Part shown: positions 1 through 55,313 of the stretch, in pieces
Position numbering within the stretch: the first letter of the stretch is position 1
How the letters are laid out: each line of letters opens with the position of its first letter
Translations under genes and position numbers: made by a program
Notes under the pieces: model-generated
What the model saw: the letters and a program-made list of their open reading frames with translations, nothing else
What the model was told of the DNA's origin: nothing
Database searches by the model: none
From: a virus
IMG/VR virus record: IMGVR_UViG_2554235236_000002
Reading direction: 5' to 3' (one strand)
DNA length: 64,000 nt

Positions 1-917
1 GGGGAGAGGGAGCCATTATCTTTTGCTTTTTGCAGCTCTTTATATTTTTGTATTAACTGATCGGTCTGTTCTTTATTTGTGGTTATTGCTTCGACACTTT
101 TCTTTTGTGACTCTGCAAGCTTTTCTTGTTCTTGTTTAGCATCAGAATAAGCAGAGACAAGTTTTTCGATTACGAAGCCTAAAGCCATGAAACCTGCCAT
201 AGGCAGTACAGCACCTGCAAGAAAAGCCATTGTTGTTCGAGCGGTAGTTTTTAATGTAGCTAACGTAATATTTAAAAAGCGGGCTCTTATTGCTGCTCCA
301 GTCATGGAAGACGAAAAGGCAGTTAACGATGTAGGGAAGTTGTTAAGCAGTCTTAAGAATAAGTTCCCATTAGCTATGGCTCCGGTTCTAAGTGAAGCGT
401 TAAAGAGTAATACCGCAGTAGTTGCAATGCCAAAAACTTGAGGAAGGAGTCCGATTGTTTTTGTTATACCTGTTCCGATTTGAACAAGGTCTTTTAGAGT
501 TTCTGTAAGTGCAACTATGCCATCTGAAACTACTGCATCCCCAGAGGCTAAGCTCAATTCTGTCCACGCGTTTGATAATCGATTTATTCTTGCCTGGAGA
601 CTTTCTGAATATTTTTCCTGTTCTTTCCATGCGCTTCCGGTTGATTCCGCAGCCGTTGTTGCCGAATCCTGGGCAAGCTGGAATTGGTTCATAAGTGCAT
701 TAAATCGAGATAACTGGTAAATTCCGGAAACGCCTATTGCAGTTTGCCGTTTTTGTGCCTCAGAAAGACCGTCCCATTTGGAACTAAGCTCTTCAATTAG
801 TTCACTTGCGCTTTTAGCTTCTCCACTCGCTGTTTTAACAGAGATGCCAATTTGATCTAAAGCTTTTATTGAGCTTTCATTGTTTCCGATTCTCGCAAAG
901 ATTGTTTTTAAGGCGTT
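1..917 (-). CDS. yomI: Tail tape-measure protein, exon 3 (runs off window)
   Basis: Open frame NALKTIFARIGNNESSIKALDQIGISVKT... continues to position 1 without a stop. Confidence 0.9.
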
Positions 918-7740: not shown

Positions 7741-8214
7741 TCAGGACGCCTTTACTTTCTCTTTTTCAGCTTTAACTTGCTCCAGTAAGCTTTTTAAATA
7801 AACAGCGCTAATACGTCTTCTCATTTCTCTCCCAATTTTAAATAGCGTTGGCACAATTAATGTGCCAGTTACTACTATTGCCCATCCAATATTAACCTTA
7901 ATATACAAATTTACAACAATCGTTATTAAAGAAATTAAGGCAGCCAAATATTTGGAATGATCAAATTGAGCTTCAATTTTAGTCACCTTTGCTATCCCAT
8001 AAAATAATCCATCATTGTCAAGACCTCGTAAAAGGTTTAACATATCAACACAATTTCCTTCAGATTTAACTGAAAAGCAAGTTTCGATAAATTCATGAAA
8101 TTCTTTATCCGTTGCAGTTAAGAAAAAATGTTTGGTGTCTGCCTTATTCCAGCTTTTCACTTCTTCCAAATCTATCTTATTTTTCTTTCTTCTAAACGGC
8201 CACATATCACACAT
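7741..8214 (-). CDS. Two-TM membrane protein, paralog A
   Basis: Two hydrophobic helices; C-terminus YLKSLLEQVKAEKEK shared with its neighbour. Confidence 0.8.
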   Translation of the reverse strand: MCDMWPFRRKKNKIDLEEVKSWNKADTKHFFLTATDKEFHEFIETCFSVKSEGNCVDMLNLLRGLDNDGLFYGIAKVTKIEAQFDHSKYLAALISLITIVVNLYIKVNIGWAIVVTGTLIVPTLFKIGREMRRRISAVYLKSLLEQVKAEKEKVKAS

Positions 8215-8302: not shown

Positions 8303-8758
8303 TTAGGATGCCTTCTCCATTTCAGACTTTACCTGTTCGAGTAAACTTCTATATTTAATTGCTCTTGAACGATTGCTACTTCCTCTCTTAATAGAAAACA
8401 ATAATACAATAAACGTAAAATAGGCTACTATGAGCCCCGAAAGCTTAAGGCTCTCATGATCCGTATACAAATTCATGACTTGACTAACCATAAATACTGA
8501 TACTGCAACAAATCCAGGCACAGTTTTTGAATTATCATAGAACTCCTCAATTTCCTTAATTCTTGCAATTCCAAGTATAAGGGTATCCATGTCGAGACCT
8601 CTAATTCTTTGCAGCTCAGCTTTTTTGTCTTTATCAGATTTGTAATCAAAATATTCTCTAATGTATTTGATTATTTGATAATCACCCCATTCAAGCAACA
8701 CCATATTTAAATCTTTCGGCTCTCTTTTGGGGTTATTCTTCATTCTAAACCGCGACAT
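8303..8758 (-). CDS. Two-TM membrane protein, paralog B
   Basis: C-terminus YRSLLEQVKSEMEKAS; duplicated promoter and terminator flanks. Confidence 0.8.
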   Translation of the reverse strand: MSRFRMKNNPKREPKDLNMVLLEWGDYQIIKYIREYFDYKSDKDKKAELQRIRGLDMDTLILGIARIKEIEEFYDNSKTVPGFVAVSVFMVSQVMNLYTDHESLKLSGLIVAYFTFIVLLFSIKRGSSNRSRAIKYRSLLEQVKSEMEKAS

Positions 8759-8896: not shown

Positions 8897-9562
8897 GTGA
8901 ACGAATATCTCGCTTTACAAAAAGCAATAGGGAACCATATTGAACAAATGAAAAAGCTGCAAATAAACAGAGTACAGAAATTGTATGACCTAGTAAATGA
9001 AACTAATAACCTTCAACAAAACATATATAAAAATATACCTACAACAGTATTCTCCTTAACATCTCAGCTTGACTCGATTTACAAACAACTTAATACTGCA
9101 TCTTTGCATCAATCAGTTACTAAACAATTGCTTTCTTCGTATAAACCATACGCTTCATTCCAGAATCTAATAGATTCTATAAATGATTTCAGCAATTTAG
9201 ATGTAAGCAAAATTAACTTTTCTGTTGCAGATGAGTTGATAATTGATGATCCAAGCGAACTTGAAAATAAAAAGTATATTGAAGAAGCAGATGAATTTAT
9301 TCAGGAGCAGCACCTAGAAGAGGGGAATGTCACAGCAGAAGATATAAACAACACTATAGAAAAAGCTGATAAGACTCTTAATCCGTATACAAAACTTTAT
9401 GTGTTTCAAACAATTCTCTTTTTCGTACTAATGGCTATCTATATTCAAATAGGTGGGGAGGAAGCACTTGGGATCAACTTTCAAGAGTTTGTTGAAACAT
9501 ATATGGGGTTTAATGCAATACGAACTGTCACCAAGTCATCTGAAAATAACAACAGAGAATAA
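8897..9562 (+). CDS. Hypothetical protein (221 aa, C-terminal TM segment)
   Basis: ORF with RBS, behind the SOS-box promoter. Confidence 0.75.
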   Translation: MNEYLALQKAIGNHIEQMKKLQINRVQKLYDLVNETNNLQQNIYKNIPTTVFSLTSQLDSIYKQLNTASLHQSVTKQLLSSYKPYASFQNLIDSINDFSNLDVSKINFSVADELIIDDPSELENKKYIEEADEFIQEQHLEEGNVTAEDINNTIEKADKTLNPYTKLYVFQTILFFVLMAIYIQIGGEEALGINFQEFVETYMGFNAIRTVTKSSENNNRE

Positions 9563-9577
9563 ATTGGAGGTTGAACA

Positions 9578-9883
9578 TTGATGAACTTCGATCCTGAGAA
9601 ATTCAAGAAACTTCTTAATTCTGCGTCAAACCCTTCAAATCCAAAGGATACAAAAATAAAGAACTATTATGTGAATCAAGAGTATCAAGAGTTTGTATCT
9701 TTCGATATTGATTTTGAGAATGTAGATACCGCCTTGCGCATTGCTGGACTTTTAGGAAAACACGCTACGAACTTTACTATAACCACTTTGCATTTCCCTG
9801 ACACAAACAAAATTGATTATATTCAATTTATAGTATTCAAAATTAATGACCCGGAACTTTTAGCTATCCTAGATCAAATATAA
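9578..9883 (+). CDS. Hypothetical protein (101 aa)
   Basis: ORF with GGAGG RBS, co-oriented with 8897. Confidence 0.75.
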   Translation: MMNFDPEKFKKLLNSASNPSNPKDTKIKNYYVNQEYQEFVSFDIDFENVDTALRIAGLLGKHATNFTITTLHFPDTNKIDYIQFIVFKINDPELLAILDQI

Positions 9884-9884
9884 A

Positions 9885-9976
9885 AATAAAATCCCACTTA
9901 ATGATAAGTGGGATTGGTTATTAATCGGTGCATCTCTGTAAGGATGCACTCTTAAAAAGCGATTAACATTTTTGTT
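9885..9976 (-). ncRNA. Candidate ~90-nt small RNA
   Basis: TTGACA-17-TATTAT promoter (10011-9983), GTGCATC/GATGCAC hairpin, then an AATCCCACTT/AAGTGGGATT terminator; no ORF. Confidence 0.4.
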
Positions 9977-10019
9977 ACTATTATAATACATCTAAGTTTT
10001 TATTTTGTCAATGGTTGTT

Positions 10020-10697
10020 TTAAACTTGATGGTTTTTTTCTTTTAAAACTTTTATTTCATCTCTTAGTTCAGCAATTTCTTGTTCCATGTCATTGATTTT
10101 TTGATACTGTAAGCTATAAAGCAATGAAAAGGAAGTTTCAATTACTTCTTGAAAAATTGATCCCACTAAATAAATATCTTCATTCAAAGAGGATATCTTA
10201 TTCAATAATCGCCCTTTACTTATAATCCTCAATTCATCCATTACAATAGCTGATTCAGATTCAAATCCATCAGCAGGAGTAACCCTCCTGTAACGTTTAA
10301 GTCCAGAAGGATTTGTTATTGGATGAAAAGCATCTTTCACTTTGTCAGGACTTGATGTAACAGGTAACACGATCAATTTGTTTTCAATTTCATCGAGAAT
10401 TAGAACAGGATGACAATAAGCAAATTCGAAATTTAGTCCTAAATCGGCTAAAAAGATTTCCCCTTGTTGTGGTGTTACTATATTGTTCCTTTCCTTATAC
10501 TGATTAAACCGCCTTCTTTGAATCCAGTTCTGTAGGCTCTTTGTTATTTCTGACAGCTCATCTTCATTAACTTTATAAGAACATTGATTTACAAAGTTAA
10601 AAGATGTGAGGAGAAACTCTCTCCATACTTTTTCTGAATCAGAAGCCTTAATATTATTTGATAAATTGTTAAACTTGCTAAAATCAGGTTTAAGCAT
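10020..10697 (-). CDS. PemK/MazF-family endoribonuclease-like protein with N- and C-terminal extensions
   Basis: PQQGEIFLADLG...HPVLIL...LIVLPVTSS...SAIVMDELRIISKGRL matches the MazF pattern. Confidence 0.8.
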   Translation of the reverse strand: MLKPDFSKFNNLSNNIKASDSEKVWREFLLTSFNFVNQCSYKVNEDELSEITKSLQNWIQRRRFNQYKERNNIVTPQQGEIFLADLGLNFEFAYCHPVLILDEIENKLIVLPVTSSPDKVKDAFHPITNPSGLKRYRRVTPADGFESESAIVMDELRIISKGRLLNKISSLNEDIYLVGSIFQEVIETSFSLLYSLQYQKINDMEQEIAELRDEIKVLKEKNHQV

Positions 10698-10727
10698 TTG
10701 ATCCTCCCAAAACTTGATGAATAATCG

Positions 10728-10755
10728 ATTCGACAGAATAGGAGGAAATACCTTC
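10728..10755 (-). promoter_or_regulatory. Possible sigma-H-type promoter for the MazF-like gene
   Basis: gaAGGTATT-N12-GTCGAAT versus consensus RNAGGAWWW-N11/12-RNNGAAT (one mismatch). Confidence 0.4.
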
Positions 10756-10836
10756 TTTTTTTACAAAATTTTTATTTCACTCAAAAGCAAAACCCCCTCT
10801 AGGGAAGGGATCTTGATTTTGAATAAAAGAGTGATT

Positions 10837-11838
10837 TTACATAAATATTTGATTCTTTTCTTCTTTAAAATCGCGAAGGTCATAGTGTTTGATTGTAGTG
10901 GAAACATCTTCATGTTGAGCAATGTATTTGCTGACAAGTTCAATCTTGATTTTCTTGACTTCGAGTAAGTAGGTGATACAAGAGGCTTTAAAAAGGTGAG
11001 GGTTGATTCTGCGGCCAAGAATGTCTGACAAAACATCGGAGCAAAAATAATCAGCCCATGTTTCTGACATTTGCTTTGGTTGTCCACCGTAAGTAGTGGT
11101 AAAGAGGTATTCATGATCGTATCCGCGTTTTTCATGCCACAGCTTTAAATATTTTAGAGCTTCTGTGTTGATCATGTATTCCAGCACCTTGCCTTCACCA
11201 CTGCCTTTGCCAAATACTTTATGCGATAACACATATTGCTGCCCTTCAGGGATGGGATATTCTAAAATTTCTGTCTTAAACTGAATGATTTCAGCTCTTC
11301 TAGCTCCTACATTAAAAGCAGTTGCAAGCCAGGCCATCCCTAAATAGTTCTCATCTTCTTCAAGGGCTTTCATCATTGTTTGATAATCTTCATATGTGAT
11401 TTTTACTTTTTCATAGGTGATTGTCTTAGGAATAGCAGGGAGGCCGCGGGTAAAGTTCCTGAATGTTTTATAATTGTCATCATCCTCAGCCACTACGTTC
11501 TCAATATAGTTATTTAAAGAAGAAACACCTGCTTTTTTTAGTGCGATACCACTGGAAGACATGCCTCTGTTTTTTAAGAAACTTTGGTATCTAATGAAGT
11601 CACGCTTAGTGATCTTATACAGTTTCTTTCCATTTAGAGAATTATGTACCCACCAAAAGAATTGCCGAAGGGAAGAGGTGTATTGCTTTCTTGTTTTGTC
11701 ACGGAATGAGTGTGCATCCAAGAATTCTTCTGTTAAATTTCTGTGCTCCCCATCAACTTGCGCCCACATTTCATTAGTCACATCAGGCAACTTCTTTGCA
11801 CGGGGACGTATCATATTCTGTTTTATTTCTTTCGCCAT
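10837..11838 (-). CDS. yomM: Tyrosine recombinase (333 aa)
   Basis: GARRAE, KG, HLFK, QH and HY catalytic pattern; size and synteny match SPbeta yomM. Confidence 0.85.
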   Translation of the reverse strand: MAKEIKQNMIRPRAKKLPDVTNEMWAQVDGEHRNLTEEFLDAHSFRDKTRKQYTSSLRQFFWWVHNSLNGKKLYKITKRDFIRYQSFLKNRGMSSSGIALKKAGVSSLNNYIENVVAEDDDNYKTFRNFTRGLPAIPKTITYEKVKITYEDYQTMMKALEEDENYLGMAWLATAFNVGARRAEIIQFKTEILEYPIPEGQQYVLSHKVFGKGSGEGKVLEYMINTEALKYLKLWHEKRGYDHEYLFTTTYGGQPKQMSETWADYFCSDVLSDILGRRINPHLFKASCITYLLEVKKIKIELVSKYIAQHEDVSTTIKHYDLRDFKEEKNQIFM

Positions 11839-11851
11839 TAATTCACCACCA

Positions 11852-12271
11852 CTATTTAACTGTCTTGTGCCCAAGTTTATTGATATCCTTGGTCACAGCT
11901 TCAATTAAGCGACCATCCTTTAAAGCTTCAGCAGTGTTGGCCATGAAAGGTCTTGGTTTACCATAGCCATAATCGTATGTGTCTGGGAATGTATAACCTT
12001 CACCAGTTTCAACAACAGTTGCGACATCGCGACCTTCATCTTCTCGAATGTTATCCAATGAGAGCCCGTTAGCTTCATTTTCAGTTACAAAGGAGCTTTT
12101 CAGGTCATGTGTTCTTTCATAAACTAGGGGATTGTACACGTCGTAAACATCAGTTTCAACATGTTCTTGCCCAGTCTTGATTAACGTTTGCTTAGTGCTG
12201 CTATTTGATTGCTGGATGGCCTTTAAAGCTTCTGTTTGCACTAAAACGGCGAGATCTTTATAAGTCGCCAT
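11852..12271 (-). CDS. yomN: Phage virion/tail-region protein (139 aa)
   Basis: Synteny and size; ends PRPFMANT like neck/tail-completion proteins. Confidence 0.65.
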   Translation of the reverse strand: MATYKDLAVLVQTEALKAIQQSNSSTKQTLIKTGQEHVETDVYDVYNPLVYERTHDLKSSFVTENEANGLSLDNIREDEGRDVATVVETGEGYTFPDTYDYGYGKPRPFMANTAEALKDGRLIEAVTKDINKLGHKTVK

Positions 12272-54143: not shown

Positions 54144-55313
54144 GTGGTGAAAGAATTGGAGTTGAAAAATTTTTTAAAGAATAAATGTGAAGAAGAACGC
54201 GGACTCGAAAAGGAGCTTGCACGAATAGCAGGATACTCTAACTCGTCAGGCTTTCATCATTTCATTTACAATGAAAAGAAAGAAATGGATAATATTCAAG
54301 GTATCATTGACGTGATTCAGAAGATTTCCCCGGAATATGAGTTTGATTTAATGAGTGAATACATATTGACATTAGACATAAATAAATCTGCAGCAAGGCA
54401 AGGCTTAGAATACCTTAGTGTAAATCAGCTATATGACACTCTAGATAAACATATTAAGAAAATGGTGTCTGCAAAGAATTCAGTTAGTAAAGAATGGGGA
54501 AAAGTCTATGCAGCCCAAAGAGAGCTAGACAAAGGCAACATTGGTATTGAAGAGTGCATTAGGCTGTTGGCTGAAATACACCCCAAATCATCTGAAATGA
54601 AGGTTTACTCTAGGATTATCCCCATGTATGCCATACTACCTTTAAAGCAATTTGGTAGATTAAAAGATATGAGTGATATTGTCTTGATTGACACAATCAG
54701 TAATCAAAATTATGTTTATCATTCGTTTAAGAGTCGCTATATGCTATTACTGGCAAACTGCTTCTTTGGAAACAATGAGATTGAGAAAGCACAAGAATAC
54801 GCAAGACATGGGATAGAGAATTCAAATGTGAAGAGGATCATTTTTTTCTCATACCTCACGTATGGAAGTTCTTTAATGTTAGATGATTACGAGAAATCAA
54901 AAAGCAGTTTTTTGAAAGGTTTAGAAGTTGGCAAAGGAAACAAAATTTATGAGCAACATGCGATTAGAAATCTTTGTTTCCTAGAAAATCTATGGGGGAA
55001 AGAGAATCAATATTTGAATATACAATCTAATGAAATAATGGACAGGCAAGAAGTTGTTCATTATCTTATAAGAAAAGGTTCTAAGCAACAGGCCAAAAAA
55101 ATGCTTGACCAGTTAGATCTCATGGAGCACGATGATAACGATCTGGGATTGCATTATTATTTAAAAGGACTTTTGGAAAGCTCTCGCGAATATTTTTTAG
55201 AATCAGTCAAATATTTTAAATTAAGTGGTGATAAGTTTTCCTGCACCCTTCCAATAATTGAACTCGAAAAGTTAGGTGTTGAAAAACAAATTTTAGAGAT
55301 AATATCAATTTGA
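54144..55313 (+). CDS. aimR: Arbitrium receptor AimR (RRNPP/TPR family)
   Basis: 389 aa, N-terminal HTH, ARQGLEYLSVN, TPR repeats, followed by a peptide gene. Confidence 0.93.
   Translation: MVKELELKNFLKNKCEEERGLEKELARIAGYSNSSGFHHFIYNEKKEMDNIQGIIDVIQKISPEYEFDLMSEYILTLDINKSAARQGLEYLSVNQLYDTLDKHIKKMVSAKNSVSKEWGKVYAAQRELDKGNIGIEECIRLLAEIHPKSSEMKVYSRIIPMYAILPLKQFGRLKDMSDIVLIDTISNQNYVYHSFKSRYMLLLANCFFGNNEIEKAQEYARHGIENSNVKRIIFFSYLTYGSSLMLDDYEKSKSSFLKGLEVGKGNKIYEQHAIRNLCFLENLWGKENQYLNIQSNEIMDRQEVVHYLIRKGSKQQAKKMLDQLDLMEHDDNDLGLHYYLKGLLESSREYFLESVKYFKLSGDKFSCTLPIIELEKLGVEKQILEIISI

Follow-up and report, generated by a model that had tools for sequence, protein, structure and literature searches.

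We report on an enlarged MazF-type toxin gene, and on a predicted small RNA gene that follows it on the same strand, in a 64,000-nucleotide stretch of viral DNA (IMG/VR virus record IMGVR_UViG_2554235236_000002) that was analysed as a whole and is referred to here as the window. The window is an SPbeta-like arbitrium prophage (Bacillus), an arbitrium phage also in a preliminary description made from the sequence, with AimR encoded at 54144..55313 (Pfam AimR, 4e-83) and with structural genes ~76% identical to those of SPbeta-like phages. The toxin gene is located directly downstream of a yomM-like tyrosine recombinase gene, within a stretch bounded by yomM-like and yomJ-like genes. Reading along the minus strand, the recombinase gene is followed by an intrinsic terminator, a short leader, the toxin gene itself, and then, next to the toxin stop codon, a promoter of the sigma-A type that leads into the predicted small RNA and its terminator (Table 1).

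The preliminary description had placed the feature at 10020-10760 and had called it an orphan MazF-like RNase. The first of the two positions stands, whereas the second does not: the open reading frame (ORF) ends at 10697 and an end at 10760 takes in part of the leader. The word orphan is probably wrong as well, because a conserved small RNA gene follows the toxin stop codon, and it does so at every locus examined.

Table 1. Features of the toxin gene, its leader and the downstream RNA in the window.
Feature	Position	Strand	Basis and remarks
yomM-like tyrosine recombinase, upstream edge of cargo slot	10837..11874	(-)	PHROG integrase 1e-26; matches SPbeta yomM
Intrinsic terminator between yomM-like and toxin genes	10788..10815	(-)	scan: 12 pairs and T-run
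Leader element, sigma-H-type promoter match GAAGGTATT-12-GTCGAAT	10728..10755	(-)	regex match
Shine-Dalgarno GGGAGGA, 4 nt before ATG	10702..10708	(-)	sequence
Extended MazF/PemK-like toxin gene, 225 amino acids (aa), stop codon included	10020..10697	(-)	ORF list and translation; Pfam; AlphaFold2 model
N-terminal extension, residues 1-73, two long helices (22-42, 45-61)	10479..10697	(-)	DSSP of model
MazF core, residues 74-194	10116..10478	(-)	alignment to B. subtilis MazF; structural alignment
C-terminal extra helix (195-224), residues 195-225, coiled-coil-like	10023..10115	(-)	model
Sigma-A promoter TTGACA-17-TATTAT, 11/12	9983..10011	(-)	promoter scan; begins 8 nt past toxin stop codon
Predicted small RNA, ~90-95 nt, ORF-less	9883..9976	(-)	promoter, fold and terminator scan

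Fold and active site of the toxin

The Pfam family PF02452 (PemK_toxin) matches residues 78-174 of the protein with 27.8 bits, compared to a curated cut-off of 23.1, and a phmmer comparison with solved structures points to B. subtilis MazF (YdcE/EndoA) and B. anthracis MoxT at E ~2e-3. The AlphaFold2 model, which was built on 61 family members (predicted local distance difference test, pLDDT, 96.3; predicted template modelling score, pTM, 0.87), contains the SH3-like barrel fold of MazF, Kid and CcdB. The top Foldseek matches of the model are exclusively MazF toxins, and an exhaustive structural scan with VIA-align gave Z 12.4 for S. aureus MazF (root-mean-square deviation 2.0 over 107 residues, aligned range 74..199), Z 10.3 for Kid, 8.8 for CptN, 8.0 for CcdB and 5.6 for ToxN. 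The MazF/PemK core claimed in the preliminary description is thus confirmed by both the Pfam score and the model fold, at a sequence identity to MazF of only ~20%. NCBIfam has no match for the protein, PADLOC-DB 2.0 has none at E<=0.1, and the one weak match among PHROGs is to the tail of the toxin.

On either side of the core the model shows the additions that had been noticed in the letters, i.e., about 70 extra N-terminal residues (helices within 1-73) and a coiled-coil C-terminal tail (helix 195-224). The second helix of the N-terminal extension has a conserved face, S54-L-Q-N-W58-x-x-R61, in which S54, Q56, N57, W58 and R61 are the conserved residues (S54 in 58/61 members, W58 in 54/61); no Pfam family was found in this region in the 61 members. 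At the other end of the protein, residues 181-193 correspond to the C-terminal helix of canonical MazF, and the 30-residue extra helix that comes after it draws just generic coiled-coil matches in Pfam.

The aligned active-site positions are H96 (R25 of B. subtilis MazF), T114 (T48) and E91 (E20), so that the threonine position is kept and the usual catalytic arginine of MazF/PemK proteins is absent at its position, where the histidine reported earlier is indeed found. These positions are among the best-conserved columns across the 61 members: E91 is present in 60, R163 in 58, position 114 is threonine or serine in 59 (the Thr48 position, T114/S115), H125 is conserved too, and position 96 is histidine in 58 members and arginine in the other 3. 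The interchange of histidine and arginine at position 96 suggests that an acid-base or phosphate-binding role is retained and argues against decay of the site.

Distribution and gene neighbourhood of the family

A word-indexed search returned 14 relatives; an exhaustive profile search brought up 453 representatives at a cut-off of E<=1e-3 (157 at 1e-10, 43 at 1e-30), almost all with a length of 200-265 aa. The relatives share the three-part build of N-terminal extension, MazF core and C-terminal helix, 47 of 61 family members also match PF02452, and a protein-language atlas contains Bacillota clusters of 51-106 members. The family is sparse, as an accessory gene would be: of 401 genomes sampled, 3 and then 5 had a member. 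A tblastn search with the toxin gave no match among 50,697 deposited phage records, SPbeta and phi3T included, and no further loci came from single-protein scans of viral contigs with two family proteins or from family-level genome draws.

Near-identical copies of the toxin gene are present in 127-173 kb proviruses and in one Bacillus glycinifermentans genome, where the copy is 98% identical and a canonical mazF is present as well. In B. glycinifermentans there is also a second extended PemK-like gene (L025:1447-2064 (-), on G002:C23; 205 aa, PemK 44.9 bits), which again has histidine at the Arg25 position (GGLHY).

We inspected eight independent contexts of the family, namely the prophage window, the metagenome contigs L013 and L014, and the genomes L038, L039, L046, L047 and L048. 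No conserved protein neighbour and no adjacent MazE or PemI gene was found in these eight contexts, and the 140-nt gap upstream of the toxin gene in the window (10698-10836) contains no ORF. The absence of an upstream antitoxin ORF, and the presence of a terminator and a sigma-H-like promoter match in this gap, had been described before and are borne out here. The neighbours of the relatives include a hydrolase gene with an Rgg-like gene; dnaK/dnaJ; a ParB-methylase gene with an integrase gene and a Panacea-domain gene; an Mrr endonuclease gene with a serine recombinase gene; a primase gene; a transglutaminase gene; and an HTH-M78 gene with a PIN gene. With respect to proteins the toxin gene is solitary, and it tends toward mobile or defence-type DNA. 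The family member found beside dnaK/dnaJ/rsgA (L014:5947-6720) has an apparent frameshift after about residue 150, which makes it either a pseudogene or a case of sequencing error; the downstream promoter and two of the mini-hairpins described in the next section are kept at this locus despite the frameshift.

A promoter and a predicted small RNA after the stop codon

The promoter next to the toxin stop codon in the window is the top promoter-like site in the 2.3 kb scanned. The RNA predicted to start from it consists of an extended hairpin (9968..9919), a terminator hairpin (9915..9890) and a U-tract. The inner stem of the extended hairpin (9949..9928) has the stem GUGCAUC and the loop CUUACAGA, and the predicted fold has an energy of -31.1 kcal/mol (z -7.0).

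The same arrangement is found throughout the family. All eight loci contain a sigma-A-type site whose -35 box starts within -20 to +20 of the end of the stop codon, with scores of 12/12 in L046, 11/12 in L039 and the window, 10/12 in L038 and L048, and 9/12 in the remaining three loci; the TTGACA of L039 and L046 shares bases with the stop codon, TGA. Sites of at least 10/12 have a background of 0.024 per 70-nt window in the same loci and were observed in 5 of the 8, which by our own arithmetic corresponds to a binomial probability of ~5e-7 for loci that are homologous and hence not strictly independent. Three of three more distant extended PemK genes (L025, L045 and L031) have the same promoter arrangement. 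The stop-codon promoter is absent in four short canonical MazF loci (L009, L016, L021 and L022), and a fifth, L017, has a 10/12 site, but this site leads into an ORF. Each of the promoters in the extended loci is followed by an ORF-less stretch of 70-160 nt with 1-3 small hairpins and then by an intrinsic terminator, with fold z of -3.3 to -7.

In six loci the hairpins have a common form, here called the mini-hairpin: its stem of 3-4 bp closes a loop that reads G(U)AAG or GAAG, with A on one side of the hairpin and AA on the other. There are 12 of these in 6 x 330 nt, compared to ~0.11 expected per 330 nt, and the middle pair varies among C-G, U-A and A-U, the covariation being judged by inspection. 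Several relatives have two identical mini-hairpins per RNA. The two hairpins of L048 have a UAGUU loop, and a compensatory change distinguishes their stems. The predicted RNA start coincides with the first hairpin in four loci. The last hairpin is 4-9 nt ahead of the terminator.

Some further observations concern the same elements. In the hairpin loop of the window RNA (within 9928..9949 (-)) there is a CUUAC, which on the opposite strand reads GUAAG, like the loop motif of the relatives; this could be coincidence or could point to a role of that strand here. Two more copies of the mini-hairpin were found at L013:2340-2400, past the RNA terminator and just upstream of an Rgg/TPR-like regulator gene. 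We considered whether the mini-hairpin could be a genome-wide repeat and rejected this: 58 of 401 Bacillota genomes contain the 13-mer AGCCGAAGGGCRA, which by visual comparison is no commoner than a reversed control and which occurs twice in tandem at one place only in these genomes, the toxin locus of G417. Tandem two-copy matches in viral contigs were also discarded, being coding EPKGK repeats in unrelated high-GC phages that have no toxin homologue.

The RNA unit travels with the toxin gene, as follows from the B. glycinifermentans copy, where homology extends from the toxin gene across the promoter, the RNA and its terminator and breaks off at 9888, where the terminator has its foot. The two copies differ by 3% in the toxin region and not at all in the RNA body; within the RNA unit they differ just in the promoter spacer and the terminator loop. 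Downstream of the L025 gene, a TTGATT-17-TATAAT promoter overlapping the stop codon is followed by ~150 nt and a terminator, so that the layout of a toxin gene followed by an RNA may extend beyond this one family. At L031 (G069:C44) the corresponding region has a TTGACA-17-TAATAT promoter, two tandem units of a 5-bp hairpin and AGGCUAA, and a terminator, and its repeat structure is clearer than that of the other loci.

Two explanations other than a toxin controlled by its neighbouring RNA have to be weighed against these observations. The extensions are conserved throughout the family, the model packs them against the core with confidence (pLDDT 93-96, pTM 0.87), and no protein partner is found at any locus, all of which would suit a single-chain toxin that restrains itself, with the N-terminal helices and/or the C-terminal coil acting as a built-in antitoxin or sensor triggered by a phage cue, and with the downstream RNA as a mere regulator or an unrelated neighbour. 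We consider such self-restraint unlikely, since it gives no reason for the near-consensus promoter and the hairpin RNA that come after the stop codon at all 11 loci, and since the N-terminal region bears no similarity to any antitoxin family.

The second possibility is that the protein is not a toxin at all. A His-type protein of the MazF fold could bind or process RNA, the neighbouring RNA being its substrate or ligand, in a ribonucleoprotein with some other role on mobile elements; the replaced catalytic arginine, the conserved pairing of protein and RNA and the lack of matches in PADLOC and NCBIfam are all compatible with this. However, the MazF active site is otherwise strongly conserved, the interchange of histidine and arginine suggests that a catalytic role is kept, and a patchy spread on mobile elements beside defence and toxin-antitoxin genes is typical of toxin modules. 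On this evidence we regard a non-toxin role as clearly improbable.

Leader of the toxin gene and possible control at the RNA level

Taken alone, the sigma-H-like match in the leader of the window is unremarkable, as ~1.2 such matches are expected per window. The same leader element recurs ahead of the family genes of L038, L046 and L047 and doubtfully, as a fifth instance, in L048, compared to 0.018 expected per 150 nt. The CCUCC of this element pairs with the Shine-Dalgarno sequence in a predicted hairpin in the window (10685..10770 (-)) and at L038:7903-7988 and L047:8388-8473, and the stem sequences differ among the three. The leader could be a stationary-phase promoter, a translational lock on read-through transcripts, or both. 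Judged from its sequence, the toxin gene would be insulated and conditionally expressed and the promoter of the RNA looks constitutive, which is the usual logic of toxin-antitoxin pairs.

A leader hairpin predicted to sequester the Shine-Dalgarno sequence is in itself a form of control at the RNA level, and SPbeta-family phages carry type I toxin-antitoxin pairs, e.g., bsrG/SR4 and yonT/SR6. The downstream RNA might accordingly control the synthesis of the toxin and not its activity, either in a type I-like manner or by some other action on the RNA (pairing with the mRNA, its stability, or its 3' end). Against this stand the position of the RNA on the same strand as the toxin gene and the RNAduplex results, where duplexes between the RNA and the initiation region of the toxin gene were no better than those of shuffled sequences in 7 of 8 loci (shuffle ranks 21/100 and 24/200 in the window; L047, at 9/200, was marginal). 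Antisense pairing with the toxin mRNA was rejected on these grounds, a type I mechanism is unlikely, and we take control of toxin synthesis by this RNA, in any form, to be distinctly improbable. In Rfam there is no family for the RNA region of the window or for the loci of six relatives, the matches obtained being at chance level.

A proposed toxin-RNA module

Our preferred reading, which we hold tentatively, is that the toxin and the downstream RNA form a pair resembling type III toxin-antitoxin systems, the RNA restraining the toxin by binding it directly. The toxin gene would be the protein half of a two-part module that belongs to the accessory cargo of the prophage and occupies the variable slot with the yomJ-like and yomM-like genes at its edges. 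The toxin would be an enlarged endoribonuclease of the MazF type, weakly and conditionally expressed, and the small RNA would bind it and keep it inactive as type III RNA antitoxins do, with the extra helices, and the N-terminal extension as the obvious candidate among them, supplying the RNA-binding surface. MazF proteins act as dimers; two identical mini-hairpins would match the two protomers of such a dimer, and a coiled-coil tail would fit it as well. If the short-lived RNA were no longer made, whether through the transcription shut-off of a superinfecting phage or through loss of the prophage, the toxin would be set free to cut RNA, and the infection would be aborted or the cured cells killed. 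In a broader and somewhat more doubtful form, the proposal is that the family represents an undescribed class of RNA-antitoxin systems, in which a true MazF/PemK RNase, enlarged by a helical RNA-binding part at the N terminus and by a coiled-coil tail, would be silenced by a small hairpin RNA encoded right after it from a consensus promoter of its own that overlaps the toxin stop codon; the pair would be patchily spread on mobile elements of Bacillota and would serve SPbeta-like prophages as cargo for exclusion or addiction.

Several considerations weigh against this proposal. Everything about the RNA is predicted, including its two ends and its binding to the toxin; the order of toxin and then RNA differs from every described type III system, and near the toxin gene there is no tandem repeat array like that of ToxI. 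A terminator is to be expected after a gene in any case, and AT-rich DNA yields promoter-like matches; the promoter statistics come from 8 + 3 loci whose homology makes them less than fully independent. The RNA of the window is without the G(U)AAG mini-hairpin of the more distant loci, so that its likeness to them is one of position and architecture and not of sequence. The histidine at position 96 could also mean that catalysis is lost or altered. Finally, since PADLOC has no model for this toxin, the case for a role in defence is drawn from genomic context.

Setting in the prophage

The interval between the yomJ-like and yomM-like genes contains yomL and yomK in SPbeta, transposases in phi3T, and in BUCT083 a RelE/ParE toxin with a small upstream gene at the position of our toxin gene. 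Because its content varies from phage to phage, the stretch is a slot for swappable cargo. The suggestion of the preliminary description that the protein acts in anti-phage defence is made plausible by this slot, with the RelE/ParE toxin of BUCT083, and by the Mrr, PIN and Panacea neighbours of the relatives on mobile elements.

The preliminary description had also proposed that the toxin feeds into the lysis-lysogeny decision through host MazEF, for example by titrating host MazE or by forming heteromers with host MazF. The phage does have an arbitrium module, host MazEF is part of the phi3T circuit (PMC10769878), and B. glycinifermentans, as host of the 98% identical copy, has a canonical mazF. 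However, the gene is in a cargo slot ~44 kb from aimR and outside the arbitrium module, none of the 50,697 deposited phage records, SPbeta and phi3T included, was matched by tblastn, identity to MazF is only ~20%, and the relatives are also found in chromosomal islands and other elements without arbitrium, the family being mostly outside arbitrium phages. The proposed link is therefore unsupported, and we consider an input into the lysogeny decision very improbable.

Two other sets of genes share this part of the prophage. Two adjacent paralogues of ~155 aa each, at 7741..8214 (-) and 8303..8758 (-) in the same cargo slot, each have a hydrophobic segment and end in a common C-terminal motif, SLLEQVK...; they have no match in Pfam, PHROG or PADLOC and may be a duplicated gene for a membrane protein carried as cargo. 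A unit of two genes without assigned function, 8897..9562 (+) and 9578..9883 (+), is convergent with the toxin module, and the two share the hairpin 9890..9915 at which the unit ends; read on the plus strand, this hairpin has a poor T-tract. This unit is a separate piece of cargo, because the B. glycinifermentans DNA past 9888 is unrelated.

Comparison with known systems

The published modulators of the arbitrium-linked MazEF pathway are small phage proteins, encoded in or near the arbitrium or repressor module, whose MazE-like helix binds MazE or MazF; AimX, YosL and phi3T_93, the counterpart of YopN, act through host MazE/MazF in this way (PMC10769878), in agreement with the background on lysis-lysogeny control that the preliminary description had given. 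In contrast, the toxin of the window is a 225-aa protein of the MazF fold encoded ~44 kb from aimR.

RNA-antitoxin (type III) systems are known from three toxin families and from the recent case of AbiF. The definition of a type III system requires a repeat array upstream of the toxin, and as new systems are sought by the same criterion, a toxin of the MazF family proper with a downstream RNA of 1-3 hairpins would go unnoticed. In type III toxins the Kid/MazF fold is supplemented by further elements with which the toxins hold their RNA (PMC3401426). The proposed module resembles the type III systems ToxIN, CptIN and TenpIN (Blower et al. 2012, PMC3401426) in 1) a toxin with the Kid/MazF fold and additional elements (Z 8.8 to CptN and 5.6 to ToxN), 2) a non-coding RNA, here a predicted one, next to the toxin gene, built from small structured units that recur and transcribed from a strong promoter, with a terminator that sets the ratio, and 3) carriage on mobile elements, type III systems being active in phage exclusion. 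It differs from them in that the predicted RNA gene is downstream of the toxin gene, has its own promoter and contains 1-3 hairpins in place of a tandem array, its antitoxin role being our proposal, and in that the toxin has a coiled-coil tail and is assigned by score to PemK/MazF proper, away from ToxN, CptN and TenpN. The sole real Pfam family match is PemK_toxin and the structure is closer to MazF, which places the protein outside the ToxN, CptN and TenpN sequence families. Of the repeats, terminator and toxin that make up a type III locus, the window has a terminator (10815..10788) preceded by the yomM-like ORF, and no array.

With MazEF and PemIK systems (B. subtilis MazF/EndoA, PDB 4MDX and 4ME7) the toxin shares the Pfam family, the fold, the glutamate of the beta1-beta2 loop and the Thr48 position. 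It differs from these toxins in its size, which is twice theirs, in the histidine at the place of Arg25, in the absence of an adjacent MazE or PemI gene at eight loci, and in its terminator-insulated leader.

The nearest conceptual parallel is the AbiF (Abi_2)/RCd22 pair of the C. difficile prophage phi027 (PMC12373285), in which AbiF is reported to be neutralised by direct binding of the neighbouring non-coding RNA, RCd22, that contains a small conserved motif twice; the toxin fold (HEPN-like Abi_2), the RNA motif and its placement are all unrelated to those found here. MazF-mx of Myxococcus xanthus (cited in PMC2701414) is likewise a MazF gene without an adjacent mazE, but it has the canonical size, is controlled by a protein encoded elsewhere, and has no described partner RNA. 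Fused proteins of the CapRel type are comparable as single prophage-borne genes in which a toxin domain is combined with extra domains that could restrain it; they have another toxin fold, and for our protein inhibition of the core by the extensions is hypothetical.

In our literature searches we met no account of an enlarged MazF whose gene is followed by an RNA. If the proposed module is real, the type II MazF lineage would be directly linked to RNA-based neutralisation, RNA partners may have escaped annotation where toxin genes are listed as orphan or solitary, and the biology of SPbeta-family phages would gain a candidate exclusion or addiction module of ~0.95 kb in a defined cargo hotspot. 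By sequence and predicted fold the toxin is a member of the PemK/MazF family that lacks the catalytic arginine and an adjacent protein antitoxin, and it would resemble type III systems most in its proposed way of working.

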